This document shows positions 7,909-61,920 of a stretch of DNA of 64,000 nt, one piece after another. Location: NCBI GenBank assembly GCA_031283185.1, contig JAITCH010000011.1, positions 69,171-133,170 on the forward strand. Direction: 5' to 3'. The position numbers and the translations under genes were made by a program. How positions within the stretch are numbered: position 1 is the stretch's first letter; each line of letters starts with the position of its first letter. The DNA comes from Rickettsiales bacterium (GTDB lineage Bacteria; Pseudomonadota; Alphaproteobacteria; Rs-D84). Below the pieces are notes generated by a model. It was given only the letters and a program-made list of their open reading frames with translations, made no database searches and was not told where the DNA came from.

Positions 7909-7921
7909 TTTTCTTCCTTAT

Positions 7922-8049
7922 TAATTCTCCTCCATTGGAGGAGTCCGGGCAAAGCCCGGGAGATGGTTTAGCCACATATCACCGCACTGCTCGCCTTAAT
8001 TTGGTTAAACCACCCCGCCCTTCGGGCACCCCTCCACCGGAGGGGAACT
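7922..8049. mobile_element. RPE-like palindromic element, family A copy 2, in the yajC-secD intergenic space (within the operon transcript; opposite orientation to the genes)
   Basis: aattctcctccattggaggag ... cccctccaccggaggggaa termini; internal hairpins tccgggcaaagcccggga and ggtttagccacatatc...gttaaacc. Confidence 0.7.
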
Positions 8050-8055
8050 TACATC

Positions 8056-8374: not shown

Positions 8375-8622
8375 AGCCAGTCAAGCACCCTTTTCCCGCC
8401 CCCGTTGCCGGGGGCATCCCGACCCTCATCCGAACATATTACAAAATTTTCTATGAAAATTTTGTCATTCCTTTGAGGTCGGGAATCTCAAATTGTAAAA
8501 TAATTATAGCGGGTGGGGGTCTCCTGACCCCCACCCGAACATTTTATCAACTTAACTCTTGCGCTTGCCTTAATCTGATAAAACTTTCGGGGCGGGGTCA
8601 GGAGACCCCGCCCCGCATTTAT
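8375..8622. repeat. Composite block of palindromic repeats: a gtcattcc...ggaatgac-type hairpin, a 30-nt motif shared with 53315, and a ~110-bp MITE-like unit with inverted termini gcgggtgggggtctcctgacccccacccg / cggggcggggtcaggagaccccgccccg
   Basis: Inverted and direct repeats read directly; caaaattttctatgaaaattttgtcattcc is repeated at 53313-53342. Confidence 0.55.
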
Positions 8623-10818
8623 CTACCTCTTCCCAACACTCACCTGATCGCCAAACCCAGAAATAACACTACCCGCAACTTTGCATTGCACAGACTCAAA
8701 GCCTTTATCCACTTGGTTCGCCTTAACGAAATGGTTCGTCAAAAAACCACCCAAAGCACCAACCGCCACAGCACCGGCGGCATCAAACCCAAGCCGTTTC
8801 CAGTTGGTCTCACCATCCGTCTTTTTCAGCCACGACGCTTTGTCTAATTGAAACGCCGATAGATCCGCCAGGGTCTCCACCTTATCCGTAGTGTCGTCTG
8901 TTTTAGTTTGCTGGTCGTCCTTTTTATCAGGTTCCGGCTGACAAGCGGCTATAATTTTATCTAATTTCTTATCCGCCGCACCTTCTTCTTTCTTAAACTT
9001 TTCCAATGTCTTGCAAGCCTTACAGACCTCTACGATATTATCCGGGAATTGATCTTTAACCGCTTTTATAAATTGATCGCCATCCTTTCCACAGGCTTCA
9101 CGGATCTCGTCGTTCTTCCTCTTTTCTTCGACTGCCTGTTCACAAGCCTGTATCGCCTGTCCAGCATCTGAAATAGTATCCGGCAATTTAATATTCAACT
9201 TCAACGCATCTTTATTACAAACATTGCAAAGTTGTTCGTTTCTTAAAGCATCTTCTTCGGTAATTTGCAAAAATATATTTCTGATTTCTTGTTTCCATTC
9301 ACACTTGAATTTCTCAACAACATTAAAACCCGCATTTGGGTCGCATATTTTCTTTATGGCTAAATTGGCCTGCCAATACTTATTACAAAGCGATTTATTC
9401 TCCGCATTATTTTTATCCAAATCAAAAGTCTTTTCACAAATTACATCTTCCGGGATTGTTGCAGTCTCCTCATTAATTTTTTTCTTAAATTGCTCGCCAT
9501 ACTTGTTTGGACAAAACTTAGCATTCACTACGGCATTTTTAATGAGAGTCTTAGTAAGTTCACTAGGACATTCACCTGCACATTCCGCATTATTAACCCG
9601 GCACCCGGCTACCCCCCGGTCTCTCCAATTCCACCATCCGTCTTTCTGGCAAACCAAGTGTTCACCTGTCTTGCAATTCGCCTGTGCCTGTGGCCATTTA
9701 CCTTCATTCTGCGTATCGGCGGAACTGAATGAATAAACAAATTGCAACGACTCATATTTTTTACCAACCTCACAGCAGAACCAGTTTCCACCATCGTCCC
9801 GCACGCAATTTCCCTTATCTTTTTCTAAATCTTCCAACAATTTTTGCTTATCTTTATCGCAAGATGCATTCGCGGTCAGTTCCAAATTTATTCCGCTTAT
9901 ATCCCATTTTTGTGTAGTGATATTGTCTTTTTTATATTTTTTCACACAGTCATCAAATTTTACATAACACCCCGACCATACACCTCCGGCTATGTTAAAC
10001 ATTTTTTCGCAAGTCCGCACCTGATTATCCGGGCAAAGATTTTCGACTTCATAATTATCTTTTTGGTAATAATACTTTACTTTTGCCTCATCTTCTTTGC
10101 CTTCCTTCTTCAATTTAAGCGATCCGTATTTATCTTTCCCAACTTCACAGCAAGCCCAGTCCTTATCCCATGTTTGTGTGCAGCGTCCTTTGAGCCTGTC
10201 TTGAAAAAATTGATTTTCTAGTTTCTCATCATCAGTCTTCTTGCACCACGACCATCCGCCTTTTTCACAAGTCTTCACTTCGCCCTGTTTGCTGCAAACA
10301 TCAGGACTTTTGCCGCCGGTTTTAAAGTAATGAAATGTCGCAAGGGTATTGTATTCTTCGGTAAAATTACAGCAAAAATACTCTTGACCTACCTTATCAC
10401 ATCTCTTTTTATATTTATCCAAATTAAACTGCCTCATTAACGGCAGTTCGCACTTCGACCATTGTCGATTTCTCTGACAAATGCTATTTTCGCCAGAATT
10501 TCCACAATTTATTGGGTCGCCTGTATTCTTAATGGTAATATCTTTTCCATTTATAATCAATTGATCAACATTGCAGCAAAAGATTTTGTTGTTTATCTCT
10601 TTGCAAGTTTCATCGTTCTTATATTTATTTAATAATTCTTCACTAGTAAGTTTTTTGGGAGCAATTATAGAATCTGGCTCGTGACTAACAAAATCCTGTT
10701 TGTGAGTGGCATTCGCCCGCGCCCCACCCGTCCAAACGGACGCGCACAATAGAACCGCAAAAATTATCTTTGCAGTATGTATAGGTGTGTGTGTGTGTAG
10801 GTTTCTGCGGGTTTTCAT
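8623..10818 (-). CDS. Large secreted cysteine- and tryptophan-rich repeat protein (731 aa from Met at 10818): Sec signal peptide, internal CCxVG / GWxWC-type repeats, C-terminal glycine-zipper hydrophobic segment. No recognisable family.
   Basis: Signal peptide MKTRRNLHTHTPIHTAKIIFAVLLCASVWTGGARA. More than 60 Cys, with recurring FCCNV, WACCEVGKDKYGSL, WFCCEVGKKYESL, CEKGGWSWCKK and CQKDGWWNWRDR units. C-terminal GFDAAGAVAVGALGGFL. A (GT)7 tract sits in the signal-peptide codons. Confidence 0.6.
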   Translation of the reverse strand: MKTRRNLHTHTPIHTAKIIFAVLLCASVWTGGARANATHKQDFVSHEPDSIIAPKKLTSEELLNKYKNDETCKEINNKIFCCNVDQLIINGKDITIKNTGDPINCGNSGENSICQRNRQWSKCELPLMRQFNLDKYKKRCDKVGQEYFCCNFTEEYNTLATFHYFKTGGKSPDVCSKQGEVKTCEKGGWSWCKKTDDEKLENQFFQDRLKGRCTQTWDKDWACCEVGKDKYGSLKLKKEGKEDEAKVKYYYQKDNYEVENLCPDNQVRTCEKMFNIAGGVWSGCYVKFDDCVKKYKKDNITTQKWDISGINLELTANASCDKDKQKLLEDLEKDKGNCVRDDGGNWFCCEVGKKYESLQFVYSFSSADTQNEGKWPQAQANCKTGEHLVCQKDGWWNWRDRGVAGCRVNNAECAGECPSELTKTLIKNAVVNAKFCPNKYGEQFKKKINEETATIPEDVICEKTFDLDKNNAENKSLCNKYWQANLAIKKICDPNAGFNVVEKFKCEWKQEIRNIFLQITEEDALRNEQLCNVCNKDALKLNIKLPDTISDAGQAIQACEQAVEEKRKNDEIREACGKDGDQFIKAVKDQFPDNIVEVCKACKTLEKFKKEEGAADKKLDKIIAACQPEPDKKDDQQTKTDDTTDKVETLADLSAFQLDKASWLKKTDGETNWKRLGFDAAGAVAVGALGGFLTNHFVKANQVDKGFESVQCKVAGSVISGFGDQVSVGKR

Positions 10819-10904
10819 AAGGTTTATTATATCACATCCAGTCCTATTTTGGAAAAACAAATCTGCCCCCACGAAACAGCATTTTATCTTGACAAATTAA
10901 TTAT

Positions 10905-11396
10905 TTGATTCATAATCGCTATGAAGAAACCATATCAAGGACTAAAATTATGGAAAATACACAACAGATTAACTCTGGCGTTAATGGCGCAAAACCGGGC
11001 AAAATCGCACTGGGGGGGGCATCCGTTATGCCAAAATTCGTAATGCCGAAAATGGACGCCATTACATTCGCCCGTTCGGACGAAATTACAAAGGAAATTA
11101 TGACCAAAGCAGTCAAAATGCAATTATTGCTCGCGGTGAATTCAGACCCTGTTTGCAGTATTTTCAATTATGACCCGTCAACGACCTGTGTAGATGAATC
11201 TGATTATAACCGCTTTATAAACCTGAACGAAGCCATTATAAAAACGGCAGAGGCCCCCTATATCATAGAACTGGCATTGGAATATGACAGAAAAAAGGAA
11301 GATTTAGAGGCGCATAATGTGCCGGATTTGCCGTATAGACCCGATATGCTTGACGCTTATGTTCATAGAAATAAACAGAAAACCCGGGGCAGATAA
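10905..11396 (+). CDS. Hypothetical protein (163 aa; alternative start at MENTQQ around 10950), divergent from the Cys-rich gene
   Basis: ORF with coding-like composition, no recognisable motif; translationally coupled to the next ORF through a TAAnATG junction. Confidence 0.35.
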   Translation: MIHNRYEETISRTKIMENTQQINSGVNGAKPGKIALGGASVMPKFVMPKMDAITFARSDEITKEIMTKAVKMQLLLAVNSDPVCSIFNYDPSTTCVDESDYNRFINLNEAIIKTAEAPYIIELALEYDRKKEDLEAHNVPDLPYRPDMLDAYVHRNKQKTRGR

Positions 11397-11397
11397 T

Positions 11398-11598
11398 ATG
11401 TATGACGAAATAGATATTAAGTGCGGTAATTATGAAAGCAATGGTGTGGGCCAAAAAGTTTTTGTTTATGCCCATCAATATCCCACGACAAGACCTGAAC
11501 CGCGAACCATAACCCTTTGTAGCGATACGGAGATTATGAAAGTAGTTCTGGATGAGGCAGGAATCGTGAATATTTTAAGAATGGCAAGGGTAAGATAA
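11398..11598 (+). CDS. Hypothetical small protein (66 aa, MYDEIDIKCGNYESNGVGQKVFVYAHQYPTTRPEP...)
   Basis: ATG one nucleotide after the upstream stop; no known motif. Confidence 0.3.
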   Translation: MYDEIDIKCGNYESNGVGQKVFVYAHQYPTTRPEPRTITLCSDTEIMKVVLDEAGIVNILRMARVR

Positions 11599-11653
11599 AA
11601 GTTAAAGATAGAAGGGATTTGCCCTCTGGCCTTTTGATTTGCCGGGGCAAATC

Positions 11654-11850
11654 CCACCAAACCTATTAATATCGTGCAAAAAAACAATAATAAATAAACT
11701 CAAAACCCGTTAGGGGAATCGCAACGCCGCGATAGGTCGTCCAATACCAAGGAAACCCGACCTGCGGTGGACTGGATGTCCATAATGTGTCGGGTTTCCG
11801 AAGTGTAGTGGGCGAAAATATCGCGGCGGGATGAAAAATTCCCCTTACGG
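11654..11850 (-). repeat. Family B ~160-bp structured intergenic element, copy in reverse orientation, with a variant core hairpin ggaaacccgac/gtcgggtttcc
   Basis: Reverse complement of the conserved flanks tttttcatcccgccgcg...ggtattgg...ttttttgcacgatat. Core stem sequence differs from other copies but stays paired. Confidence 0.65.
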
Positions 11851-11861
11851 GTTTTGTCCGC

Positions 11862-12275
11862 TTATCTTTCTTGTTTCTCTTTTGCCTCTTGTTCTGCTAT
11901 GGTGATGCGGGCAATCGGTCGAACCATAAGCCGCTTTAATCCAATCTCATCCCCGGATATTTCAGAATATCCATAAGTCCCGTCTTCCAATCTTTTCAAT
12001 GCCGCGTCTATGAACTGGATCATATTACTATCGCGGTTAGCGATTTTGATTTCCATATTAAGAGTCATATCTTTATCGGCGGCGTCTTCCAAATCGCCCG
12101 GCGCATCGTCATTATCGCGCATAGTATTGCGAAGTTCAGATTCTTCCTCAATTAATTCCGCTTTTTCAGCATTAAGAAGTTGATAAAAATACGCCTTTTG
12201 CTCCAAGCACATATATGGCTCTGTTAATCTCGGCTTATATCCGGGCTCTAATGCAAGTGTTTTGTAGTCGTCCAT
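11862..12275 (-). CDS. dksA: DksA-family RNA-polymerase-binding transcription factor, cysteine-free (no C4 zinc finger)
   Basis: Coiled-coil with acidic tip GDLEDAADKD. C-terminal GYSEISGDEIGLKRLMVRPIARITIAEQE aligns with the E. coli GYCESCGVEIG...ADLCIDCKT zinc-finger region, with all four Cys substituted. Confidence 0.65.
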   Translation of the reverse strand: MDDYKTLALEPGYKPRLTEPYMCLEQKAYFYQLLNAEKAELIEEESELRNTMRDNDDAPGDLEDAADKDMTLNMEIKIANRDSNMIQFIDAALKRLEDGTYGYSEISGDEIGLKRLMVRPIARITIAEQEAKEKQER

Positions 12276-14102: not shown

Positions 14103-14104
14103 AA

Positions 14105-14233
14105 AATTCCCCTCCCCGGGAGGGGTGCCCGAAGGGTGGGGTGGGCAATGAGCATAGTCAAAATGCAGAGCCTGTGATTAATGGTAGACCCACCTCGGCG
14201 GCTACGCCGCCACTCCTCCATTGGAGGAGAATT
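14105..14233. mobile_element. RPE-like palindromic element, family A copy 3, inserted between sufT and sufE (inside the operon)
   Basis: aattcccctccccgggaggggtgcccgaagggtggggtgggc ... ctcctccattggaggagaatt. Confidence 0.7.
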
Positions 14234-14913: not shown

Positions 14914-16509
14914 ATGTTTGAGGTAGGCAGCGATGCGATTTTATCAATTAAAAGCGGAATGAAAAAAAATGATTTCCGCGTGGATTTCGCGCGCATAGTT
15001 TTACTTGTCCTATTCTTTATATTCTCAATCCGTATCGTGCAACTTGGTTTAGAATCGCCAAATGCAAAACGGCGCAGTGTGGGGAATGCCGCTTGGCAGA
15101 CGCTTAGGGCGGATATAGTTGACAGGAATGGCGAATTATTGTCCGGAACTGCGCCTGGATTTTTCATCAAAATCTATCCTGGGCGCATAAAGGATTTGGC
15201 CGCAACGAAAGAGGTTTTAGAAAAAATTTACCCCGGGTTTGACGCGTCATTAGTGGAATCGAAAAAGACCGCGCTTTATCTTAATTATATCCCTCTGGGC
15301 CCGACAGATCCGGCGGTTTTGGCGGCGCGTGAAATTCATCAAAACTGGTTGGATTTGGAAGAGCGGCGCATCCGGCAATATGCGAAAAAGAGAATCTCCG
15401 CGCATATATTGGGCTTTGTCGGCAAGGACGGGGCGGGGTTGGAGGGCGCGGAAAAGTTCTTTGACGCACGGCTGAAATCTTCGGCGGAACCAGTCGCGCT
15501 TTCCATAGATTCGCGGATTCAATCATTGCTTTATCAAGAATTGTCGGATGCTAAAAATAAATATCATGCGAATTTTGCCGCCGGAATTCTAATGGATTCT
15601 ACAACCGGTGAAATTATCGCCGCCGCGCAGGTTCCAGACTTTGATCCGAATGACGCAGGATCGTCCCGCGCAGCCGACAGACAATTTATTCCGATGCGGA
15701 GCGTGTTTGAGATTGGAAGTATTTTCAAGATTTTTAATACCTTGCTCGCGCTTAAAACCGACCCGAATGCAAAAAAGAAATACGATGTGTCAAAGCCCGT
15801 GCAGATTGGCGCGGCAACCATTCACGATAAAAGTTCCCATAGCAAAACCAACTTTATGAATGTAGAAGATATTATGGTGCATTCTTCTAATATAGGTTCG
15901 GCGCGCGTGGCGTTGGCGCAGCCCGCAGGCGTGCAGGCGGAGTTTTTTAGAGAACTCGGACTTTATACGCCGCTGAATGTGGATGGCTTGGGTCGGACGG
16001 CAGTCTGGCCGGAAAGGAAAAATCCTCAGCCGATAGAGGTGGCAAATATGGCGTTCGGCCACGGCATTTCTGTATCAATGATGAATCTAATCGCGGCGGT
16101 AAATGGCGTGGCGAACGGAGGGGTTTTTGTGCAGCCTAGACTTACCAAGGCTATGGCAGGCGAAGGGATTGAAGGTCGGCGCGTGGTATCGGCGGACGCT
16201 TCTAAAACTTTGCGCCGAATGATGCTGCGGGTGTCAGAGGAAACCACAGGCAAGTTAGCGCGAGTCGGCGGGATTGATATAGCTTCAAAAACTGCGACTG
16301 CGGAAAAATTGGTCGGCGGGCGATATTCGGACACAAAGAATCTGAATAGTTTTGTTGCTGTGTTTCCCGTGGAATATCCGCGATATATTTTATTGATTAC
16401 GATTGACGAGCCGCAAGCGATAGATGGCGGCGGGCGGACATCTGCGTTTAATGCGGTGCCGGTTGCTGGGCGTGTTTTAGATGTCGCCGTCCCCTTGTTG
16501 ATGAAATGA
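14914..16509 (+). CDS. ftsI: Peptidoglycan D,D-transpeptidase FtsI (PBP3)
   Basis: SxxK (SIFK), SSN (HSSNIG) and KT(A)T motifs; PBP dimerisation domain; 531 aa. Confidence 0.8.
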   Translation: MFEVGSDAILSIKSGMKKNDFRVDFARIVLLVLFFIFSIRIVQLGLESPNAKRRSVGNAAWQTLRADIVDRNGELLSGTAPGFFIKIYPGRIKDLAATKEVLEKIYPGFDASLVESKKTALYLNYIPLGPTDPAVLAAREIHQNWLDLEERRIRQYAKKRISAHILGFVGKDGAGLEGAEKFFDARLKSSAEPVALSIDSRIQSLLYQELSDAKNKYHANFAAGILMDSTTGEIIAAAQVPDFDPNDAGSSRAADRQFIPMRSVFEIGSIFKIFNTLLALKTDPNAKKKYDVSKPVQIGAATIHDKSSHSKTNFMNVEDIMVHSSNIGSARVALAQPAGVQAEFFRELGLYTPLNVDGLGRTAVWPERKNPQPIEVANMAFGHGISVSMMNLIAAVNGVANGGVFVQPRLTKAMAGEGIEGRRVVSADASKTLRRMMLRVSEETTGKLARVGGIDIASKTATAEKLVGGRYSDTKNLNSFVAVFPVEYPRYILLITIDEPQAIDGGGRTSAFNAVPVAGRVLDVAVPLLMK

Positions 16510-16664
16510 CAAAAAACATAACCTCGGTTTTTCGTTTGTTGTCTATAACGGCTACTAACTTCGGAACGGCAGGGAAACTTATGGGCGGATAGCCCACCGC
16601 GCCCTGCCGTTCCTGGTTATTATCCGTTCTATCCTAACAAACGCGACCTCGTTAATGTTTTTTG
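16507..16664 (+). repeat. Family B structured intergenic element starting on the ftsI stop codon; core stem ggaacggcaggg/ccctgccgttcc
   Basis: tgacaaaaaacataa...ttcggaacggcagggaaacttatgggcggatagcccaccgcgccctgccgttcc...gttctatcctaacaaacgcg...ttttttg. Confidence 0.7.
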
Positions 16665-16723
16665 AGTTTATTTATTATTGTTTTTTGCACGATATTAAAA
16701 TACCCCGCCCGTGCGGGGGATTT

Positions 16724-22398: not shown

Positions 22399-22658
22399 CC
22401 AAAAAACATAAGGTGCATTTTTGAGATATTTATTGGATGGCCTATCAAGCCGTTGCGATGTCGCTGGATTTTTTGAGATTATTATTATAATTAATATCGT
22501 GCAAAAAACATTAACGAGGTCGCGTTTGTTAGGATAGAACGGATAATAACCAGGAACGGCAGGGCGCGATGGGCTATCCGCCCATAAGTTTCCCTGCCGT
22601 TCCGAAGTTAGTAGCCGTTATAGACAACAAACGAAAAACCGAGGTTATGTTTTTTGGC
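22399..22658. repeat. Two family B elements in tandem: a core-less flank-only copy followed by a full inverted copy
   Basis: aaaaaacataaggtgcattttt...gttgcgatgtcgctggatttttt, then the reverse complement of the 16507-16664 element. Confidence 0.65.
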
Positions 22659-24339
22659 ATTTAGGCAATAAAGAATTAATAGCTGGGCGCAAGTTGGATG
22701 CGTTGAATAAATAACTCCCGCTGACCAACTCATCCGCCCCGGCGCGCCAGCATAACTGCGCCGTCTCTTCATTTATCCCGCCATCCATTATTATCTGAAA
22801 TTTCAATCTGCCCTTGGCGCGGACTTTACAAAGCCTTCGCACCTTATCCAAAACCTCTATCATAAACTGCTGCCCGCCGATTCCCGGCACCACCGACATC
22901 ACAATAATTCTATCAAGGTGTTTTATTATCGGCGCAATCGTATCAATTTCATCTTCCGGGTTTAGAGCAATGCCGCATTTGACCCCCGCCTGCTTTATAT
23001 GGGCAAGGTTCTGGGCAAGGTTTCGAGACCCGGTGATGAGGACAATTGAATCCGCCCCCGCCCGGATGAATTTCGGAATTTCAGGCGCAGGATCGCCCGC
23101 CATTAAATGCGCCGAAAATTTCAATGCGGAATCACGGGTTATATTTGCGGCATCCTTTGCCGAACCTGTTTTTTGCGGCGTCCATTTTCCATCCATAAAG
23201 TCATAATGGATTTCGCGCACACCGGCTTCCTCGAATTGGCGGAGAAGACTTCGGGTCATTCTACCAAAAGAAAGCGAGCTGGGCTGGATGGGACATTTCG
23301 GACTGGCCAAGCGATATATAATTCTTCTTAAAAACATAACGATGCGCGAACGGGATGGTTGCTGCGAAGTGCTGCGGCAAGCGGCGGCGATGGCGGTATC
23401 CGCTGCGGCGGCGATGGCGGTGCCATCCAAAGTTTCGGATATGATTTTGGACGCGACTTTGACATTGCTGCCGCCGCCGAAGAGAATGATTTTTTTAGGA
23501 ATTTCACCTGGAAATTTAGCCGCCAATTCGTCCGAAATTTTCCCGGCCAAAATCTTGAAAAAGCCGGAGATTTCGTCCTTTATATCTGCGGCATTTACAG
23601 ACCCGATTGTATCAAATTGGTCTTCCAATTTAAGGGGGGAAACGGCGGCCTGGATTTTCAATTTTTCCGCATCTAAAAAACTGATGTCAAACCTGTCCGC
23701 GATCTGTTTGGTCAAGTCCATTTGTCCGATGCCCAGTTCATCCATATGGACTATGCCGGCGTCATTTCCGACCGCAATGCGGGTTGCGGATCCGCCGAGA
23801 TGAATGAGTAATGCTTCGCCTGAAAATTTATACATAACCTGCATCATATCTATAAAGCCGACTGGTTCCAGATAAGATGCCTCCGCCGTTCGGGCGAGGC
23901 ATTCGGTTTCTTGGCGCGGGCAAAGGATGGCGAAAAAATCGCCCCTAAGATCTGCTGTTCTGATGCCGACGGGCGAGTCTACATTTTGTCCATCCGCATC
24001 CCAGCGAATAGGGACAAGATGAATGGTTGAGAGTTCCGGGTTTTGGAGTTCTGGTAATGCCGCGATCATTTTGCGGACATCCGATTCCGTTATTTTCTTG
24101 GGGTATGGAAAGGCGAGGCTGTTAGACACTATGCCCGAAGTTTGTCCGCCGAAATATCCCGCGATAAAGGCGCGTTTGAATCGGCTGCGGGTTTCGGCCT
24201 CCAATTCGTCCAAGACTGCGTTTAATGCGTCCCCGGGATTGGCTGAAATATCTTTTGTTTTGATGATTATTTTATCGTTAAAGGATGCGGCTGCCTTGAC
24301 CCGGTTTCTTCCGAAATATATGACGATTGCATCGCTCAT
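22645..24339 (-). CDS. Single 564-aa reading frame: truncated FtsA-like actin-family domain (residues 1 to ~335) fused without a stop to a complete ribulose-phosphate 3-epimerase
   Basis: FtsA blocks LLIHLGGSATRIAVGNDAGIVHMDELGIGQMDLTKQIA and KKIILFGGGSNVKVASKII. The first phosphate loop is degenerate (VIYFGRNR) and the FtsA C-terminus is missing. After an Ala-rich linker the Rpe blocks follow: IHYDFMDG, HLMAG, MSVVPGIGGQ, IIMDGGIN, AGADELVSGS. Confidence 0.6.
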   Translation of the reverse strand: MSDAIVIYFGRNRVKAAASFNDKIIIKTKDISANPGDALNAVLDELEAETRSRFKRAFIAGYFGGQTSGIVSNSLAFPYPKKITESDVRKMIAALPELQNPELSTIHLVPIRWDADGQNVDSPVGIRTADLRGDFFAILCPRQETECLARTAEASYLEPVGFIDMMQVMYKFSGEALLIHLGGSATRIAVGNDAGIVHMDELGIGQMDLTKQIADRFDISFLDAEKLKIQAAVSPLKLEDQFDTIGSVNAADIKDEISGFFKILAGKISDELAAKFPGEIPKKIILFGGGSNVKVASKIISETLDGTAIAAAADTAIAAACRSTSQQPSRSRIVMFLRRIIYRLASPKCPIQPSSLSFGRMTRSLLRQFEEAGVREIHYDFMDGKWTPQKTGSAKDAANITRDSALKFSAHLMAGDPAPEIPKFIRAGADSIVLITGSRNLAQNLAHIKQAGVKCGIALNPEDEIDTIAPIIKHLDRIIVMSVVPGIGGQQFMIEVLDKVRRLCKVRAKGRLKFQIIMDGGINEETAQLCWRAGADELVSGSYLFNASNLRPAINSLLPKCQKT

Positions 24340-26075: not shown

Positions 26076-26148
26076 TTTTTGTTTTATGCCTTTCTATTCA
26101 TTATCATTATAGATAAATAATTTCCAAAAATCCAGTGGTATAAATAAA

Positions 26149-26277
26149 AATTCCCCTCCGATGGAGGGGTGCCCGAAGGGCGGGGTGGTTTAACCACATA
26201 TTACCACAATACTTGCCAAAATGTGGCTAAACCACCTCCCCCCACTTCGTGGGGGACTCCTCCACAGGAGGAGAATT
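26149..26277. mobile_element. RPE-like palindromic element, family A copy 4
   Basis: aattcccctccgatggaggggtgcccgaagggcggggtgg...gggggactcctccacaggaggagaatt. Confidence 0.7.
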
Positions 26278-29657: not shown

Positions 29658-30372
29658 GATATTGAAATCACTTGCAAAGGCGGAAAGAATGGCCGGATCC
29701 AAAGATGCGGCGTTGGAAACATACGGATTATCCAAAGTCTTCAAGGATTCCAGCCGTCCACTACCCATATTAAAGGGCGGCGACCTGCGCGTGAACAAGG
29801 GCGAAATAGTCGCGCTTGTTGGACCATCGGGCTGCGGCAAATCAACTTTTCTGCAATGCGCGGGACTTCTTGATAAAGCAAGCGGCGGAAACATATTTAT
29901 TGGCGGCGTTCCTGCGGCAAGCCTTGGTGATAACGAACGGACAAAACTCCGCCTTCTCAAAATCGGATTTATATATCAGAAGTATAATTTGCTGGGGGAT
30001 TTTTCCGCGCTGGAAAATATAATGATGCCGATGCTGGTAGCCGGAGTGCGCCGCGTAGAGGCGGAATTTCGGGCAAAAAAATTAATTCGCGCAGTGGGAT
30101 TAGGCGCGCGGGAAAATCATAGACCAGCGCAATTATCCGGCGGCGAACAGCAGAGAGTTGCATTCGCGCGCGCTTTGGCAAATAACCCGGATATTATTAT
30201 GGCGGACGAGCCGACAGGGAATTTGGATCCTTCCAATGCTGGCGCAGTGTTTGATTTGGTGCTGGATTTGGTGAAGAAGACGGGGCTGGCGATGTTGATT
30301 GTCACCCACGATTCTGACATAGCCGCCCGCGCCGACCGCATAGTATCCATCAAAGACGGCATCATCGGTTAA
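29650..30372 (+). CDS. lolD: Lipoprotein-releasing system ATP-binding protein LolD
   Basis: Walker A GPSGCGKST, ABC signature LSGGEQQRVAFARAL, Walker B IIMADEPTGNLD. Confidence 0.85.
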   Translation: MSEILKSLAKAERMAGSKDAALETYGLSKVFKDSSRPLPILKGGDLRVNKGEIVALVGPSGCGKSTFLQCAGLLDKASGGNIFIGGVPAASLGDNERTKLRLLKIGFIYQKYNLLGDFSALENIMMPMLVAGVRRVEAEFRAKKLIRAVGLGARENHRPAQLSGGEQQRVAFARALANNPDIIMADEPTGNLDPSNAGAVFDLVLDLVKKTGLAMLIVTHDSDIAARADRIVSIKDGIIG

Positions 30373-30465
30373 TGCCAAAAAATCCTATCGTTGTATTTCA
30401 TCCTGCCGGGCAAAATCGCTTCTCCGTCATCAAATGCCGACACCTTATGTATATAAAATACACCG

Positions 30466-30541
30466 CGGGTCGGGTTTCCTTGGTATTGGACGGTCTATCA
30501 AGCCGTTGCGATGCCGCTGGATTTTTTGCACGATATTATTG
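30466..30541 (+). repeat. Family B element, 3' half only
   Basis: gtcgggtttccttggtattggacggtctatcaagccgttgcgatgccgctggattttttgcacgatattattg. Confidence 0.55.
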
Positions 30542-33587: not shown

Positions 33588-33926
33588 ATGGCGGTATTTC
33601 GCCGTAGTTTTAGCAACAGGGCAGATTTTATCCGCTTGAAAGAAAGCGGAAAATTTGCTCGCACTTCATTTTTTATTATGAATTTTGCGCCTGCCCGGGA
33701 GATTCCCGCGCGGTATGGTTTGATTGCGGTTAAAAAATCGTTTGGCACGGCCATTAGTCGTAATCGCGCCCGGCGTCTGATGCGGGAATGGTTAAGGTTG
33801 TCTGCGGGGCTGCTTGACCCAAATATGGATTACGCGTTGGTATTGATGCCAGAGATTTTAAGGGCGAAAAAGGAAGATGGCCTTAGGGAATTAGAAAGGG
33901 CGGTTAAAAAGTTGAGAGTAAAATAA
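33588..33926 (+). CDS. rnpA: Ribonuclease P protein component
   Basis: Conserved RNR motif (ISRNRARRLMRE); canonical rpmH-rnpA linkage. Confidence 0.8.
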   Translation: MAVFRRSFSNRADFIRLKESGKFARTSFFIMNFAPAREIPARYGLIAVKKSFGTAISRNRARRLMREWLRLSAGLLDPNMDYALVLMPEILRAKKEDGLRELERAVKKLRVK

Positions 33927-34039
33927 TTCCCCTCCGGTGGAGGGGTGGTCGCGGAGCGACCAGGGTGGGTCAAGCGTGTGGTATTAAGGGTAGACCCACC
34001 TCCCCCGCTTCGCGGGGACTCCTCCCAAGGAGGAGAATT
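33925..34039. mobile_element. RPE-like palindromic element, family A copy 5, abutting the rnpA stop
   Basis: aattcccctccggtggaggggtggtcgcggagcgacc...gactcctcccaaggaggagaatt. Confidence 0.7.
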
Positions 34040-39088: not shown

Positions 39089-39763
39089 ATGAGCGGATGG
39101 AGAGAGGGGCATAGAAAACGGATTTTTGATAAATTTGATAAGGGATTGGATATGTCGCCTTATGAAATTTTAGAGATAATTTTATGTTATTGTATTCCGC
39201 GGATGGATGTGCGGGGAACGGCTTCGCAATTGGTGAAAAAATATGGCAGTCCGTTGGCTGCTTGTATTCAATCTGAAAAATCATTGTTGGAAAACGAGGG
39301 AATTGGAATTTCTTCTGCGCGGTTGTTGCGGGCAATAGGCGGGCTTTATGAAGATAGTTTTGCGATTAATATGAAGGCAGAGCCGATATATCATAATATC
39401 CAGATTCTTTATGATTATTGTAGGATTAAGATGGCGGCGTTGGAAGAAGAGCGGGTTTTAGTGCTTTATTTGGACGCGAATATGAAGTTGATAAAGTCGG
39501 AAGAGCATACCAAAGGATCGGCGGCGGAATCTGCGTTGTATAAGGATAAAATTGCGAAGAACGCATTGGTTATGGGCGCAAGGAATGTGGTGGTTGTGCA
39601 TAATCATCCTGCTGGCGGGGATTTTTCGATTGATGATTATAATGTTTCGTGCGCGCTTAGGGACGCGCTGGGAACGATTGATGTGAAGTTGTTTGATCAT
39701 CTGCTGGTGAGCGATGGCAGAGTTCTATCTGCGAAAGAAAAATGGCCCGAATTGGGCGTATGA
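39089..39763 (+). CDS. radC: RadC-family JAB-domain protein (UPF0758)
   Basis: JAMM motif VHNHPAGG; N-terminal HhH-like region. Confidence 0.75.
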   Translation: MSGWREGHRKRIFDKFDKGLDMSPYEILEIILCYCIPRMDVRGTASQLVKKYGSPLAACIQSEKSLLENEGIGISSARLLRAIGGLYEDSFAINMKAEPIYHNIQILYDYCRIKMAALEEERVLVLYLDANMKLIKSEEHTKGSAAESALYKDKIAKNALVMGARNVVVVHNHPAGGDFSIDDYNVSCALRDALGTIDVKLFDHLLVSDGRVLSAKEKWPELGV

Positions 39764-39928
39764 CAAAAAACATAAGGTGCATTTTTCGTTTGCGGTCTAT
39801 ATCGCCCAGAATCAAGGAAAATGGGGGCACACTCATTGGCATACAGCCAACTTCACCCCCATTTTCCTTGATTCTGGGCGTTCTATCCTAGCAAACGCGA
39901 TGCACCTAATGTTTTTTGCACGATATTA
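39761..39928 (+). repeat. Family B element starting on the radC stop codon (core ggaaaatgggggcac...cccccattttcc); followed at 39929-39953 by a terminator-like aattcccctcc hairpin shared with argS
   Basis: tgacaaaaaacataaggtgcatttttcgtttgcgg...ttttttgcacgatattaaaattcccctccgatggagtggaatt. Confidence 0.65.
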
Positions 39929-39955
39929 AAATTCCCCTCCGATGGAGTGGAATTT

Positions 39956-49981: not shown

Positions 49982-51773
49982 CGAACAGAGTTTTGTATTT
50001 GATCGAAGAAGTTTCATTGTTTTGGCGGCCGGCGGCGCATTATCAATGCTGCTGATATTTCGTATGGCGCAATTACAAATCGTAGGCGGCGGCAGATACC
50101 GCAGGCAATCTGAAAAAAGCTTGATGAAGGTTCGTATAAATGTTCCGCCCCGCGGAATTATTTATGCGCGGGATGGCAGCGCGCTTGCGACAAATATAAC
50201 TTCATACCGCGCTTACATTATTCCGCGCGAAGTCCAGGATATAAATTTGGTTTTGGATTTGCTGCGTTATAAATTCGGATTTCGGCAATCAAAACTTGCA
50301 TTTGTTGAAAAGAACTATCGCAAAAATCGCAGATCATATTCACCATTATTCGTCAAAGAAAACATTTCCTGGAAGGATATGAGTGATTTAAGAACGCATA
50401 ACAAAACCCAGGGATTTTATGTAGAACAAAGTTTATCCCGCAGTTATCCGAATGGCGCGCTTGGGGCGCATGTAATCGGCTATGTTGGAAATGTGGATGA
50501 AAACGATCTGAAAACCCGCTTTGATCCGAATAGTGAAATTTTATATTTTAAGATTGGTAAAACGGGACTTGAAAAGAAATTTGACGCGCAACTTCGCGGC
50601 ATAGCCGGGCGCAGTATGTATATGGTTGATGTTCTTGGTCGCGTTGTTCGGGACGGCGTGGCGGTGCGGGACGGCGTGGCGGGTGAAAACCTGCATACCA
50701 CCATATCACCATCTATTCAGAAATCCCTTGAAACCGCATTTGCAGATTATCCATCCGTCTCCGGCGTTGTTATGGAAATAGAAACAGGCGAAGTTCTTGC
50801 TATGGCATCCACCCCGAACTTTAATCCTGAAAAATTCCAATCGGACGAACTGGGCGAATATTTCGAGGAACTTAAAAACGATAAACATAAACCATTTGTG
50901 AACAAGGCAATCGAAGGCGGCTATCCCCCAGGATCCACCTTCAAGATTGTTGTCGCAATGGCCGCCTTAGAGGGCGGCGCGATTACCCCTCAGGAATCTG
51001 TCGTCTGCACGGGCGAATGGATGTATGGAAATCATAAATATCATTGCTGGAAGAAAAACGGCCACGGACGGCAGAATATGTTTGACGCCATCGCCCATTC
51101 CTGCGATATATATTTCTATCAGTTGGCTCTTAAAATCGGAATGGACGCGATAAAGGCTATGGCGTTAAAACTTGGCTTTGGCGTAGTATTACAAAATGAT
51201 TTGGCGGGCGAAATCCCGGGTATTATTCCAGACCGCAAATGGAAAGAAAGGCGTGTCGGTTCCAACTGGGTGCACGGAGACACCGTTATCTCCGGCATTG
51301 GCCAAGGATTTGTAGTCGCAACGCCGATACAGATATGCACGATGATGTGCCGTCTTATATCCAATACCAAAGTTGTTCCGAAAATCGTTAATTATTCGGA
51401 TCATTCCGCGCCCGCGCCGAAATTGGATTTACATGAACCGAATGTCCAAATTGTTTTAACTGGACTTGGCAATGTTACAAAAAAAGGCGGAACCGCCGAA
51501 ATCGCCAATATCAATGTGAATGGCAAAACTATGGGTGGAAAAACCGGAACTTCACAAGTCCGCCGCATATCAGAACAAGAACGAGACAGCGGCGTCCGCA
51601 CCAACGACCAACTGCCGTGGCATCTTCGCAACCACGGACTCTTTGTCGGATTTGCACCGACGGACGCACCGAAATATGCAGTGATGGTTGTTACAGAACA
51701 CTCCGGTGGCTCCACCAATGCGGCCCTCATCGCCTCCCGTGTAATGCGTGATATACTCAAAGGTGAGAAATGA
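49971..51773 (+). CDS. mrdA: Peptidoglycan D,D-transpeptidase MrdA (PBP2)
   Basis: SxxK GSTFKIV, SxN and KTGT (GGKTGTSQV) motifs; PBP dimerisation domain; 600 aa. Confidence 0.85.
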   Translation: MIDSEQSFVFDRRSFIVLAAGGALSMLLIFRMAQLQIVGGGRYRRQSEKSLMKVRINVPPRGIIYARDGSALATNITSYRAYIIPREVQDINLVLDLLRYKFGFRQSKLAFVEKNYRKNRRSYSPLFVKENISWKDMSDLRTHNKTQGFYVEQSLSRSYPNGALGAHVIGYVGNVDENDLKTRFDPNSEILYFKIGKTGLEKKFDAQLRGIAGRSMYMVDVLGRVVRDGVAVRDGVAGENLHTTISPSIQKSLETAFADYPSVSGVVMEIETGEVLAMASTPNFNPEKFQSDELGEYFEELKNDKHKPFVNKAIEGGYPPGSTFKIVVAMAALEGGAITPQESVVCTGEWMYGNHKYHCWKKNGHGRQNMFDAIAHSCDIYFYQLALKIGMDAIKAMALKLGFGVVLQNDLAGEIPGIIPDRKWKERRVGSNWVHGDTVISGIGQGFVVATPIQICTMMCRLISNTKVVPKIVNYSDHSAPAPKLDLHEPNVQIVLTGLGNVTKKGGTAEIANINVNGKTMGGKTGTSQVRRISEQERDSGVRTNDQLPWHLRNHGLFVGFAPTDAPKYAVMVVTEHSGGSTNAALIASRVMRDILKGEK

Positions 51774-51930
51774 CAAAAAATCCTAACTTTGTTTTTCATC
51801 CCGCCGCGATATTTCCGTCCACTACACTTCGGAAACCGGGGGCACACTCATTGGCATCCAGCCAACTTCGCCCCCGGCTTTCCTCGGTATTGGACGGCCT
51901 GGCGCGCCGCTCAGACAAAGTTGGATTTTT
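51771..51930 (+). repeat. Family B element starting on the mrdA stop codon (core ttcggaaaccggggg/cccccggctttcc)
   Basis: tgacaaaaaatcctaac...tttttcatcccgccgcg...ttcggaaaccgggggcacactcattggcatccagccaacttcgcccccggctttcctcggtattgg. Confidence 0.7.
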
Positions 51931-51951
51931 AGAATTTATTAGAGGGGGTGT

Positions 51952-53133
51952 TTGATGGGTTTAGCAGTTCGCATCACTCGCGCAGAATCTCTATCCATTA
52001 TGGACAAGATACCGCGCATCAACAAACCGCTCCTCGGCTGTATGTTTCTATTACTCTTCATATCAATCGCCACGCTCTATTCAATCGGCGGACGCCCCTG
52101 CAATGCATTAATAGAATGCACTTTCGGCGGATGGAATCCATATGCCTGGCAGCAACTACTTAAAATCGGACTTGGTCTTATCGTCTTCGCCATCGCCGCA
52201 TTAATCAATATAAAATTCGTCATCCGTTCCAGTTATATAATGTTCACTATCGCGCTTGTAATGGTTCTAATGGTCAGCCTTTGGGGACATACAGGAATGG
52301 GCGCGGCCAGATGGCTTGATTTATGGCTATTCAAGGTTCAACCCTCCGAATTTATAAAAATATCTATGGTCGTATGTATCGCCCGATATTTTTCCTGGCT
52401 TAATTCGGCCGAGGTCAAGGATTGGAAACAATATCTTATCCCCATCATACTATTCGCCGCGCCATTCGTTTTGGTGTTAAAACAGCCTGATTTGGGCACA
52501 GCAATATCCCTCTTTTTGATAATCAGCACTATGTTTTTTATGATTGGCGCGCCGCGCAAATGGTTTATCGTAATCATTTCGCTGGTTTTATTATCTTCGC
52601 CTGTCGTTTGGAAATTCGCAATGCATGATTACCAGCGCGACCGCATTTTAACCCTGATTGACCCGGCCAAGGATCCAAAAGGCAAGGGATACCAAATCAT
52701 TCAATCCAAAATGACAATCGGATCGGGCGGCTTTGCCGGCAAGGGTTATTTGTCCGGCGCGCAAGCGGCATTGAACTTTTTACCCGAAAAACAAACCGAT
52801 TTTATCTTCGCAGTATGGGGCGAACAATTCGGATTCCTTGGCGCGATTTTCCTGCTTGCCATTTATACAATCATATCCGTCTTGCTTTATAGAACGGCGC
52901 GAAGTTCTAAAAACCGATTCGGACAATTATTATCCATTGGCTTTATGGTGAGTTTATTTGTATATTATTTTGTGAATATGGCGATGGTTATGGGACTTAT
53001 GCCGGTGGTTGGCACGCCGCTGCCTTTATTAAGTTTCGGCGGATCGTCTTTAATCTCACTGATGCTGGGCTTTGGGCTTGTCCAGAACGCCCATATCCAC
53101 AAAGACATCCAACTTTCCGGCAAAGGGAACTAA
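51952..53133 (+). CDS. mrdB: Peptidoglycan glycosyltransferase RodA (SEDS family)
   Basis: 393 aa, 10 TM segments, SEDS blocks (PSEF.K, GSGG..G.G); follows mrdA. Confidence 0.85.
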   Translation: MMGLAVRITRAESLSIMDKIPRINKPLLGCMFLLLFISIATLYSIGGRPCNALIECTFGGWNPYAWQQLLKIGLGLIVFAIAALINIKFVIRSSYIMFTIALVMVLMVSLWGHTGMGAARWLDLWLFKVQPSEFIKISMVVCIARYFSWLNSAEVKDWKQYLIPIILFAAPFVLVLKQPDLGTAISLFLIISTMFFMIGAPRKWFIVIISLVLLSSPVVWKFAMHDYQRDRILTLIDPAKDPKGKGYQIIQSKMTIGSGGFAGKGYLSGAQAALNFLPEKQTDFIFAVWGEQFGFLGAIFLLAIYTIISVLLYRTARSSKNRFGQLLSIGFMVSLFVYYFVNMAMVMGLMPVVGTPLPLLSFGGSSLISLMLGFGLVQNAHIHKDIQLSGKGN

Positions 53134-53135
53134 AT

Positions 53136-53310
53136 GACAAAAAACATAAGGACAATTTTTCATCCCGCCGCGTCATTTCCGTTCACTACACTTCGGAACG
53201 GCAGGGAAACTTATGGGCATCCAGCCCACCGCGCCCTGCCGTTCCTTGGTATTGAACGCAATGCCGCGCCGTTGCGATTGTCCTAATGTTTTTTGCGGGT
53301 TATTAAAACA
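53136..53310 (+). repeat. Family B element after rodA (core ggaacggcaggg/ccctgccgttcc), followed by a gtcattccc-gcgaaggc-gggaat hairpin shared with 8440
   Basis: atgacaaaaaacataaggacaatttttcatcccgccgcg...ttcggaacggcagggaaacttatgggcatccagcccaccgcgccctgccgttcc...ttttttgcgggttattaaaac. Confidence 0.7.
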
Positions 53311-53398
53311 AAATTTTCTATGAAAATTTTGTCATTCCCGCGAAGGCGGGAATAGGGCTAAAAATCGCGGGCAAAGCCCGCCACGAAGGAACCAACTT

Positions 53399-55633: not shown

Positions 55634-55762
55634 ATTCTCCTCCGATGGAGGAGTCCCGGCGTAGCCGGGGAGGTGGGTCTACCCTAAATCAAAGGCTCAA
55701 CATAGGGACTACGCTCATTGCCCACCCCGCCCTGCGGGCACCCCTCCCGGGGAGGGGAATTA
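55634..55762 (+). mobile_element. RPE-like palindromic element, family A copy 6, filling the whole topA-dnaG spacer
   Basis: aattctcctccgatggaggagtcccggcgtagccggggaggtgggtctaccc...cccctcccggggaggggaatt. Confidence 0.7.
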
Positions 55763-58207: not shown

Positions 58208-59269
58208 ATGGGATTCAAGTGCGGCATAGTCGGATTGCCAAATGTCGGCAAATCTACAATCTTTAATGCGCTGACCGCAAGTCGGTCGGCAGCGGCCGCC
58301 AATTACCCATTTTGCACCATTGAACCCAACGAAGGCTCGGCTGTCGTCCCAGATGAAACCCTTCATCGCCTTGCCGCAATCGCCAAATCCGCAAAAATCA
58401 TTCCCGCCCAAGTAGAGTTCGTTGACATAGCAGGACTTGTCCGGGGCGCGAGCACTGGCGAGGGCCTCGGGAACAAGTTCCTCGGCCATATCCAAGCCGT
58501 GGACGCAATCGCCCATGTAGTTCGTTGCTTTGTTGACGATAACATCATTCATGTCGCAGGCGAAGTGAATCCGCTTGGCGATATAGAAACCATAGAACTG
58601 GAATTACAACTTAGCGACTTGGAGTCTATTGAAAAGCAAATCGCGGGGCTTTCCAAACGCGCCAAGGGTCAGGATAAAGACGCCATTAAATCTCTCGCCG
58701 CCGCCGAACAGATTCGGGACGGGCTAAAATCTGGCAAATCCGCCCGCGATATATCGGACGGCAATCCCTTTAATCTTTTAACCGCCAAACCCGTAATGTT
58801 CGTCTGCAATGTGGACGAGATGGATGCCGCAACCGGCAACGCGCTTTCCAAATCTGTCATTGATAAATTCGGCGGGGTAATAATATCTGGCAAAATAGAA
58901 CAGGAAATTTCCGAATTATCAAGTGAAGAAAAGATTGAATTTATGAAGGAACTCGGGCTTGCCGAGTCCGGCCTAGATCGCGTTATAAAGGCAGGATATA
59001 AACTCCTCGGCCTACAAACATTCTATACCATTGGCCCCAAAGAGGCGCACGCTTGGACTATCCGCACGGGGGACACCGCGCCGCAGGCGGCCGGACGAAT
59101 TCATACGGATTTCGAGAAGGGCTTTATTCGCGCCGAAGTGATTAATGCAACCGACTTTATCGCCCTTGGCGGCGAAGTTCCCGCAAAGGAAGCAGGTAAA
59201 ATGAGGGTCGTTGGAAAAGATTATGTAATGTCCGAGGGCGACATCTGCCATTTCCTTTTCAATAACTGA
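58208..59269 (+). CDS. ychF: Ribosome-binding ATPase YchF
   Basis: G1 GIVGLPNVGKSTIFNALT, TGS C-terminal domain, 353 aa. Confidence 0.9.
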   Translation: MGFKCGIVGLPNVGKSTIFNALTASRSAAAANYPFCTIEPNEGSAVVPDETLHRLAAIAKSAKIIPAQVEFVDIAGLVRGASTGEGLGNKFLGHIQAVDAIAHVVRCFVDDNIIHVAGEVNPLGDIETIELELQLSDLESIEKQIAGLSKRAKGQDKDAIKSLAAAEQIRDGLKSGKSARDISDGNPFNLLTAKPVMFVCNVDEMDAATGNALSKSVIDKFGGVIISGKIEQEISELSSEEKIEFMKELGLAESGLDRVIKAGYKLLGLQTFYTIGPKEAHAWTIRTGDTAPQAAGRIHTDFEKGFIRAEVINATDFIALGGEVPAKEAGKMRVVGKDYVMSEGDICHFLFNN

Positions 59270-59270
59270 A

Positions 59271-59440: not shown

Positions 59441-59534
59441 AATTCCTCTTGCATTTTACAAATTTTCCCCCATAATCCAACCGAACTCCCCATGGGTCTT
59501 TCGCATACCCCAAGGAAAGCAAAAGGAAAATAAA

Positions 59535-61764: not shown

Positions 61765-61772
61765 ATCAAAAT

Positions 61773-61900: not shown

Positions 61901-61920
61901 TTTATTAATAAGGATAAAAA

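Follow-up and report, generated by a model that had tools for sequence, protein, structure and literature searches.

The opa genes of Neisseria are the nearest described counterpart, in their logic, of the locus analyzed here, while the VSP proteins of Giardia are the nearest in protein design; both likenesses are analogies without sequence similarity. Neisseria Opa proteins undergo phase variation via CTCTT repeats in the coding region of the leader peptide, and in the VSPs, of which there are many, cysteine-rich ectodomains that vary between members are joined to a hydrophobic C-terminal helix and a short tail, the helix being conserved and the tail invariant. Such disulfide-rich coats are well suited to a gut full of proteases. 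The locus is a gene for an exported, cysteine-rich protein of 731 amino acids (aa), located on the minus strand at 8623–10818 of a 64,000-nucleotide (nt) stretch from a Rickettsiales bacterium of the order Rs-D84 (assembly GCA_031283185.1, contig JAITCH010000011.1, positions 69,171–133,170), the whole of which is called the window below. It is read here as belonging to a multigene family, specific to its lineage, of variable, probably repeat-switched envelope proteins, a reading to which, taken as a whole, we assign a probability of about 0.5.

Similarly to opa, there are several dispersed paralogues with conserved ends, variable and putatively exposed parts and a frame-setting repeat in the signal-peptide codons. 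In contrast to the Opa proteins, which are 8-stranded outer-membrane β-barrels governed by pentamer repeats, the tract here is a dinucleotide or a homopolymer, and the product combines an ectodomain of 600 aa, rich in disulfides, with a C-terminal tether that is helical; the 731-aa protein has no sequence similarity to Opa, and its switching is a candidate property deduced from sequence. The VSPs differ in being eukaryotic and dominated by CXXC motifs (two here), in ending with a 5-residue CRGKA tail (about 33 residues here) and in a switching that is not repeat-based. The parts of the gene are listed below.

10826–10855, minus strand: promoter-like site TTTCCA-18-TGnTATAAT, with 7 nt from the end of the -10 element to the ATG
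8623–10818, minus strand: coding sequence of the 731-aa exported cysteine-rich protein, an intact open reading frame (ORF), stop codon included
10714–10818, minus strand: signal-peptide codons, aa 1–35, with predicted cleavage after ARA (from sequence and hydropathy)
10785–10798, minus strand: (AC)7 in codons 7–11 (LHTHT) of the signal peptide, a candidate slipped-strand on/off switch found by tract scan
9601–10605, minus strand: four tandem six-cysteine modules, C-x8-9-CC-x22-37-C-x7-8-C-x7-15-C, aa 72–406 (from Cys spacings and alignment)
8941–9513, minus strand: three four-cysteine modules, aa 436–626, two of them C-x22-24-C-x2-C-x23-24-C (from Cys spacings)
8626–8874, minus strand: C-terminal domain, aa 649–731, LADLSAFQLD..W..DG..N..RL..D, glycine-zipper helix, VK..Q..KGFE..C..G....GD..VG (from family alignments)
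8725–8793, minus strand: glycine-zipper hydrophobic helix, aa 676–698 (from hydropathy; helical in the AlphaFold2 (AF2) model)
8588–8615, minus strand: GC-rich hairpin with a T-rich tail 8 nt past the stop codon, a likely intrinsic terminator and one arm of the inverted repeat at 8509–8616

The protein starts with a Sec-type N-terminus, MKTRRNLHTHTPIHTAK-IIFAVLLCASVW-TGGARA/NA, in which the n-region carries K2, R4, R5 and K17, the h-region is IIFAVLLCASVW and the slash marks the predicted cleavage site between A33-R34-A35 and N36. Its composition is rich in K, D, E and N (96, 58, 56 and 52 residues, respectively), and it contains 17 Trp and 42 Cys: 40 in the ectodomain, one in the C-terminal tail and one in the signal peptide, so that 41 remain after cleavage. 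The four six-Cys modules occupy aa 72–123, 140–192, 213–284 and 338–406; their six Cys and one Trp, the latter two to nine residues ahead of the last Cys, are invariant over these four and over three further copies in the paralogue P0002. After them come two isolated Cys pairs together with the three four-Cys modules, which are helical by our own reading of the sequence and have similar units, recognized by eye, in the paralogues P0002 and P0003. An acidic, Lys-containing linker separates them from the last 83 residues.

Much of this anatomy had been outlined in the original prediction, made by a model from the sequence alone, and it was confirmed in respect of the uninterrupted minus-strand ORF with a Sec signal peptide, the Lys/Asp/Glu-rich composition, the recurring W/C-rich units, the glycine-zipper hydrophobic segment near the C-terminus and all of the quoted motifs (FCCNV, WACCEVGKDKYGSL, WFCCEVGKKYESL, CEKGGWSWCKK, CQKDGWWNWRDR and GFDAAGAVAVGALGGF). 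The claimed number of more than 60 cysteines was an overcount, and the word "giant" is not apt at 731 aa. The description of an exported, disulfide-type, non-housekeeping protein is supported, and no curated family covers it: the profile and structure-prediction searches that had been recommended (Pfam, NCBIfam, PDB, Foldseek) pointed to no known family. Specifically, the 731-aa protein had no Pfam, NCBIfam, PHROG, PADLOC or PDB sequence match, a word-indexed homology search with the full sequence returned the query alone, and the full protein matched nothing in the genome collection. AF2 gave an all-β model of low confidence (predicted local distance difference test, pLDDT, of 60) for one six-Cys module with a 7-sequence alignment, and Foldseek found no PDB match to this low-confidence model at E ≤ 0.001.

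Relatives of the protein were recovered through its C-terminus. When 1.84 billion representatives were searched exhaustively with phmmer (cut-off E ≤ 1e-3), 777 proteins (clusters) matched, nearly all at query residues of about 640–731 and at the extreme C-terminus of the matched protein, while the N-terminal parts were unrelated and very different in length and sequence. The family consensus reads ..SVWK..DG.FNTARLASDS.AGVVLGTAGGLITS.VVKKNQV..GFEDI.CTVGGQ.VAGWGDEF.VGI., and R, D, G, Q, G and C are invariant in the three domain alignments (A1, A2 and A5). The 731-aa protein holds all of R, D, G, K, Q, G and C as well as the family motif W..(D/E)G.(F)N..RL..D, G-zipper helix, K..Q...GF(E/D)...C...G....GD.(F).VG, and the domain profile matched the window ORF at E = 3e-29. 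The domain corresponds to no Pfam, NCBIfam or PDB family (20 domain sequences had no Pfam match at E ≤ 1), and it was not found on the viral contigs searched. Judged from these sequence comparisons, the family with its new conserved C-terminal domain is real and undescribed. The AF2 model of the domain (100 sequences, pLDDT 55) has one long helix across the hydrophobic stretch and then a short β-hairpin; the tail is its sole fairly confident part (pLDDT of about 80), with amphipathic β-strands in the last 25 residues or so.

Cysteines lying between signal peptide and C-terminal domain were counted in 114 signal-peptide-bearing family members no shorter than 200 aa. The count (median 18) was even in 101 of them and odd in 13, as expected if the exported domain forms intramolecular disulfides. 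This points to family ectodomains that are exported and disulfide-bonded. The 731-aa protein has both traits, a Sec signal peptide (aa 1–35) and an even ectodomain number (40), and with an even count the invariant Cys of the tail is left unpaired.

Short members without a signal peptide were considered as a possible second topology and rejected: one of them, P0241 (82 aa, locus L065, 9700–9990), represents only the end of a longer, signal-peptide-bearing and Cys-rich gene that is interrupted by an assembly gap (a stretch of N). Such fragments account for many of the "short" members in protein databases. Elsewhere among alphaproteobacterial gut genomes, divergent adjacent pairs of family genes, or two family genes within 10 kb, are frequent (L063, 8476–10378; L068, 8652–11395; L067, 2844–4298 and 10001–12175), and one and the same family gene has different left-hand neighbours in L066 and L067, suggesting rearrangement near family members. 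The domain stretch W-K..K.N...AG.AAGAVVGGLGG weakly resembles the hydrophobic glycine-zipper core of the mammalian prion protein, whose AGAAAAGAVVGGLGG segment was a non-significant PDB match of the domain profile (alignment A2, E = 0.19); convergence in composition is almost certainly the cause.

The family also bears on the origin of the protein, which the original prediction had thought conceivably eukaryote-derived. In favor of a eukaryote-derived toxin, effector or adhesin module that is released are the Cys-rich repeat modules and the K/D/E-rich composition, which superficially resemble eukaryotic extracellular modules. However, EGF, laminin EGF, TNFR and kringle modules had to be rejected, as Pfam (E ≤ 1, for these and any other eukaryotic family), phmmer against PDB and the fold search with the poor module model were all empty; CxxC motifs number only two; and the conserved C-terminal tether speaks against release. 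All members inspected that carry a source name are a "hypothetical protein" of an "Alphaproteobacteria bacterium" or a "Rickettsiales bacterium", from metagenome-assembled genomes (MAGs) of gut or rumen. Fungal and bacterial CysRRep repeats have the spacing Cx6-9Cx5-7Cx8-11Cx7-8CC (bioRxiv 10.64898/2026.06.07.730663); they were also rejected, since a regular-expression search of the 731-aa protein found no such spacing. We consider a eukaryotic origin very unlikely.

The seven best phmmer matches all came from the same MAG (NCBI "Rickettsiales bacterium", LBB23_ tags): LBB23_03855, 03995, 04120, 04680, 01650, 02480 and 02640, which makes at least 8 copies with the 731-aa protein. The first three of these are on the same 142-kb contig as the gene studied. 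The paralogues are dispersed, unclustered, among housekeeping genes (ftsK, an M23 peptidase and others); the 64-kb window contains no second copy of the C-terminal domain, and neither silent ectodomain cassettes nor extra six-Cys modules or C-terminal domains were present in the window and three paralogue loci. As judged from the sequences, the pattern among the paralogues is one of constant ends and a variable middle. The C-terminal 85 aa of the 731-aa protein share 84% identity with P0002 and 73% with P0263, while the ectodomains are at most 30% identical or unalignable. At the other end, the paralogues have in common a 5' DNA cassette, TATAAT-N5-7-ATG...AAACCCGCAGAAAC-CTA-(CA)n.

Over the 83–84 codons of the C-terminal domain, synonymous differences numbered 30–40 against 13–30 non-synonymous ones at a nucleotide identity of 58–74%, indicating that the domain is old, under purifying selection and not homogenized by recent conversion. 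The G+C content at third codon positions (GC3) was 0.32–0.40 in the ectodomain codons of all paralogues, 0.54 in the C-terminal domain and 0.51 ± 0.03 in the genome; the AT-rich ectodomains in all paralogues explain the local dip in G+C without horizontal transfer.

A further property of these genes is their simple repeats. Paralogue DNA was readable for four genes (the 731-aa gene, P0003, P0005 and P0008), with P0002 available as protein, and all four carry a long simple repeat. In the 731-aa gene it is (AC)7, the sole dinucleotide run of at least 7 units in the window (none in 100 dinucleotide-preserving shuffles), and gain or loss of a single AC unit would cut the product to 18 or 43 aa. 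The other tracts are (AC)9 directly 5' of the ATG of P0003 (L061), G9 in P0005 (L060) and C10 in P0008 (L062), while the P0002 signal peptide reads THTHTHT at the corresponding place. Related genomes contained one comparable repeat in 885 kb. P0005 is split exactly at its G9: the upstream frame has a leaderless start, a signal peptide and a Cys-rich stretch and stops just past the tract, while the downstream frame continues to the C-terminal domain, and G8 would join both frames. Of the features of phase-variable genes, two were present: a frame-shifting repeat in the 5' coding part and several tract-bearing paralogues, one of which is split. In their arrangement the simple repeats suggest the signature of contingency loci, that is, of phase variation, and we infer that tract length does change.

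As to the annotation of the split copy, LBB23_03855 (L060, 5686–6186 and 6001–8109), listed with 702 aa (or 661 aa), is apparently a gene of about 800 aa broken by one additional G at the G9 tract, and its annotated N-terminus is probably spurious.

The 731-aa gene is a real gene. Its frame, counted as 731 aa from the ATG or 749 aa from an upstream GTG, runs without interruption, and a codon model trained on the long genes of the window scored all three ORFs of the segment between yajC and dksA best in their own frames. The locus was matched at 100% over window positions 8589–11655 by the Logan assembly of run SRR14710906, which is independent and the sole second assembly of it. A TATAAT 5–7 nt from the ATG recurs in three paralogues, at 10819–10831 for the 731-aa gene, at about 5680–5690 of L060 for P0005 and at about 55–69 of L062 for P0008, which suggests leaderless mRNAs for the family; the mRNA of the 731-aa gene is probably leaderless.

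A non-functional ORF or pseudogene was nevertheless weighed, because most of the 731-aa protein has no homologue, one paralogue has a frameshift, and the coding score of the ORF, the highest of its six frames, yet lies about 2 standard deviations below the genes of the window. Internal frameshifts, which the original prediction had named as evidence for a pseudogene, were not found: the frame is open throughout its 2.2 kb. The gene also has promoter-like and terminator-like signals of its own, the six-Cys pattern does not change from module to module, the ectodomain Cys number is exactly even and purifying selection acts on the C-terminal domain, all of which makes a pseudogene extremely improbable.

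Several known anchoring designs resemble the C-terminal domain in part. Glycine-zipper envelope proteins (SlyB/Pcp and the Rickettsia 17-kDa antigen; PF05433, PF13488, PF13436, PF13441) are likewise exported and have a weakly hydrophobic Gly/Ala-rich zipper, but as a two-helix hairpin, whereas here a single helix is followed by a conserved C-terminal β-hairpin tail; a glycine-zipper outer-membrane lipoprotein was rejected, since the protein lacks both a fitting lipobox (V-L-L-C25 is not one) and a Pfam match. The sorting tags of the PEP-CTERM/exosortase, GlyGly-CTERM/rhombosortase and LPXTG/sortase systems similarly follow unrelated exported N-terminal domains with a shared, helix-bearing C-terminal tag and are lineage-restricted and multi-copy. 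In contrast to these tags of about 25–35 aa with a basic cluster just past the helix, the domain here spans about 70–83 aa, with a juxtamembrane W..G.FN..RL..D and a conserved tail of about 33 aa. The YadA-like anchor (PF03895) is also a conserved C-terminal domain of about 65–70 aa behind variable passengers, often after a helical or coiled stretch, and ends in amphipathic β-strands over about 25 residues; unlike in YadA, the central segment here is predicted to be helical with GxxxG and not β. A trimeric autotransporter (PF03895) was rejected, with no match at E ≤ 1 and an end, VGKR, that is not aromatic (VGIQ, VGVK and similar ends in the family).

Under the preferred reading, the multigene family of variable envelope proteins, a probably leaderless mRNA would yield the protein, which would leave the cytoplasm through Sec by means of a cleavable signal peptide. 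Its ectodomain of about 600 aa (four six-Cys and three four-Cys modules, 40 Cys) would be locked by about 20 disulfides outside the cytoplasm, and the conserved C-terminal module, a weakly hydrophobic GxxxG-type helix followed by the β-hairpin tail with its invariant Cys, would serve as the envelope tether. The 5' leader with the signal peptide and the C-terminal module would be kept constant among the paralogues, while the ectodomains diverge almost completely. Slipped-strand changes in the repeats would probably switch single copies in this genome, the (AC)7 of the 731-aa gene being currently in the ON frame. The family might thereby form the changeable, protease-resistant outer face of a gut symbiont or parasite with a reduced genome, acting in contact with, or evasion of, the host or partner cells. 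Outside exposure is favored by the high disulfide content, the rapid divergence of the ectodomains, the many copies in a genome of about 1 Mb and the repeat tracts. The disulfide bonding, the anchoring membrane, the outward exposure and the biological role are inferred, and we lean towards an outward-facing, envelope-tethered protein.

Several results weigh against this reading. Simple repeats were found in none of the family genes at six loci of other genomes, so that the switching, if real, would be lineage-specific, and in the sole second assembly the tract length was identical (100%) and no polymorphism was seen. The inspected neighbourhoods of family genes revealed no conserved partner gene, outer-membrane translocation device or sortase-like gene. 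Both AF2 models, of the C-terminal domain and of the six-Cys module, are of low confidence (pLDDT 55 and 60), and expression and surface exposure of the 731-aa protein are predictions from sequence, the indirect hints on its location pointing in both directions. The helix is too weakly hydrophobic for a confident inner-membrane stop-transfer segment. A Pfam scan of 100 members detected OmpA-like domains in 3, CarboxypepD_reg in 2 and ankyrin, collagen and Big_1 in 1 each; the OmpA-like (peptidoglycan-binding) domains lie in the N-terminal part and favor the periplasm over the surface for the members that have them.

Part of the same evidence would fit a C-terminal domain that is a generic inner-membrane tether with a lipobox-like role, on periplasmic structural or binding proteins whose paralogues differ by function and whose repeats are hot spots or decay. 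A signal peptide and a hydrophobic helix followed by K/KK give by default an N-out/C-in stop-transfer topology, and the one invariant Cys of the tail has no partner, as would be expected on the cytoplasmic side; the very heterogeneous N-terminal domains, peptidoglycan-binding ones among them, and the repeat-free family genes of other genomes agree with it as well. However, on the Hessa biological hydrophobicity scale, summed over 19 residues independently of position, the helix scored +5.35 in the 731-aa protein and +4.4 as the family median, far less hydrophobic than the YajC anchor (-2.9) and the true inner-membrane helices of the window in general (YajC, SecD, SecF and the PAP2 protein, -2.9 to +2.1). 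Weakly hydrophobic glycine zippers can cross Sec and later join the membrane as oligomers. The Cys content of 5–7% is unusual for periplasmic proteins, the paralogues have a conserved 5' cassette in common, and their long repeats (4 of 4) stand against about one per 885 kb in relatives. On balance, a periplasmic protein on a generic tether is possible but rather unlikely.

A bolder extension of the preferred reading is offered tentatively, as a conjecture that we hold to be doubtful: the C-terminal module of about 70–83 aa may be an unrecognized anchoring and display device of diderm Alphaproteobacteria, with an oligomerizing glycine-zipper helix and a β-hairpin tail, carrying a disulfide-armoured, repeat-switched coat repertoire, a bacterial counterpart of Giardia VSP-type variation for attaching to, or hiding from, a partner. 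If the domain were indeed a new anchoring or sorting device, it would be a new mechanism for the biology of the bacterial envelope. In any case, the domain, with its 777 clusters, provides a handle for cataloguing the family, testing where exported proteins of these organisms are localized and seeking phase variation in metagenomic reads.

The nearest relatives found by SecD were Candidatus Enterousia and further MAGs labelled "Alphaproteobacteria bacterium" (from rumen, gut and termite gut), with 66–69% identity; SecD scans of the genome and metagenome collections gave no relative above 69%, and a YajC scan of the metagenome collection gave no match, which shows that this collection does not include the contig of the window itself. 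The neighbourhood of one family member (L056) is syntenic with the window at 22.6–30.4 kb, with 52–60% identity. Enterousia belongs to the order Rs-D84, with genomes below 1 Mb, a predicted dependence on partners and many hypothetical membrane proteins (PMC12306168). Rs-D84/Enterousia-like Alphaproteobacteria are widespread in animal guts, uncultured and thought to live off other cells (PMC12306168). With at least 8 exported proteins that are large, disulfide-rich and fast-diverging and share one tether, a genome of about 1 Mb would be investing in its interface.

The surroundings of the gene were examined in relation to the claim that it belongs to a repeat-bounded accessory island. The repeats concerned are the following.

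8509–8616: left block, mainly two 28-nt GC-rich terminator-like hairpins in inverted orientation, directly past the stop codon and followed by a promoter-like site for yajC
11701–11856, no strand assigned: copy of a dispersed long-hairpin repeat, not part of the gene, 156 nt, a near-perfect hairpin (minimum free energy -91.9 kcal/mol, z = -9.3)
16500–16679, 22487–22668, 30370–30539, 39747–39934, 51762–51941, 53121–53312, 59260–59442, 60098–60283 and 61754–61913, approximately: other long-hairpin copies

The long hairpins are about 160–180 nt long, near-perfect, with 19-nt terminal inverted repeats, and all of them are intergenic, with 10 copies per 64 kb (about 1 per 6.4 kb). They were absent from about 1.1 Mb of loci taken from elsewhere, and the family looks like a lineage-specific element similar to miniature inverted-repeat transposable elements (MITEs) or Correia elements. 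Rfam has no family for the flanking hairpins, the sub-threshold microRNA and rpsL_ricks matches being hairpin artefacts. GC-rich palindromes occur in many other intergenic gaps, for example at 7914–8050 between secD and yajC. As the repeats on the flanks are genome-wide, they say nothing specific about the segment: it does have palindromes on both sides, as stated originally, but trivially so, the right one being a long hairpin of the dispersed family and the left ones terminator-like hairpins.

The cargo of a mobile genomic island, or a MITE-flanked insertion between yajC and dksA, might still be argued from these repeats, from a G+C of 0.34–0.43 against about 0.47 in the surroundings, from a GC3 of 0.40 against 0.51 ± 0.03 in the other genes and from the closest relatives found (SecD identity of 69% or below), in which different genes lie upstream of yajC. 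However, there is no integrase or transposase among the window ORFs and the only tRNA of the window is at 41.9 kb; the repeats of the two flanks are of different families, without a target duplication; and the window has 10 copies of the hairpin, which sit at unremarkable intergenic positions. Furthermore, the low G+C is limited to the ectodomain parts of all paralogues, with a GC3 of 0.54 in the C-terminal domain, and this domain was not found on viral contigs. The accessory island was therefore not upheld: the gene belongs to a set of at least 8 paralogues scattered over the genome and shows no marks of mobility, and an insertion of this kind appears quite unlikely.

Short GC-rich double-hairpin families similar to repetitive extragenic palindromic (REP) elements were also noticed, at 2477–2537, 7919–7979, 14103–14144, 26145–26205, 33921–33981, 55629–55689 and elsewhere. 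Together with the long hairpins, at which assemblies break, they make this small genome unusually repeat-dense.

The rest of the segment is a separate, divergent transcription unit.

10889–10916, plus strand: divergent promoter-like site TTGACA-16-CATAAT (11/12 matches) for the small ORFs
10950–11396, plus strand: orphan ORF of 148 aa (LBB23_04195), without a signal peptide or transmembrane segment, supported by its own-frame coding score
11398–11598, plus strand: orphan ORF of 66 aa, translationally coupled (TAA-T-ATG), also without a signal peptide or transmembrane segment; 79 aa from 11359 according to a public gene caller

Two coupled, divergent ORFs had been proposed at 10905–11396 and 11398–11598, and this holds except for the start of the first, which is most likely the ATG at 10950, giving 148 aa and not 163, since the TTG lies within the predicted promoter, an AAGGA precedes the ATG by 9 nt and the gene callers give 148 aa. 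Neither has a recognizable motif, as had been stated, with Pfam, NCBIfam, PHROGs and PADLOC empty and no toxin-antitoxin or defence family among them, and in a word-indexed database search the 148-aa ORF matched only itself (LBB23_04195). They have no paralogue in the window and no counterpart beside other family genes, and no functional tie to the large gene was found, so that the idea of one island system including all three genes was not retained. The 148-aa ORF contains a G8 homopolymer (11012–11019), which was not counted as a switch, since by our own estimate about one G8 is expected by chance in 64 kb.

Finally, the DksA homologue on the right side of the segment (11862–12275) was matched in its N-terminal domain, while its C4 zinc finger stayed below the threshold and the region is Cys-free (GYSEISGDEIGLKRL). 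The DksA of a relative (L023) is likewise Cys-free there, and the protein looks like a Cys-less, DksA2-like variant.

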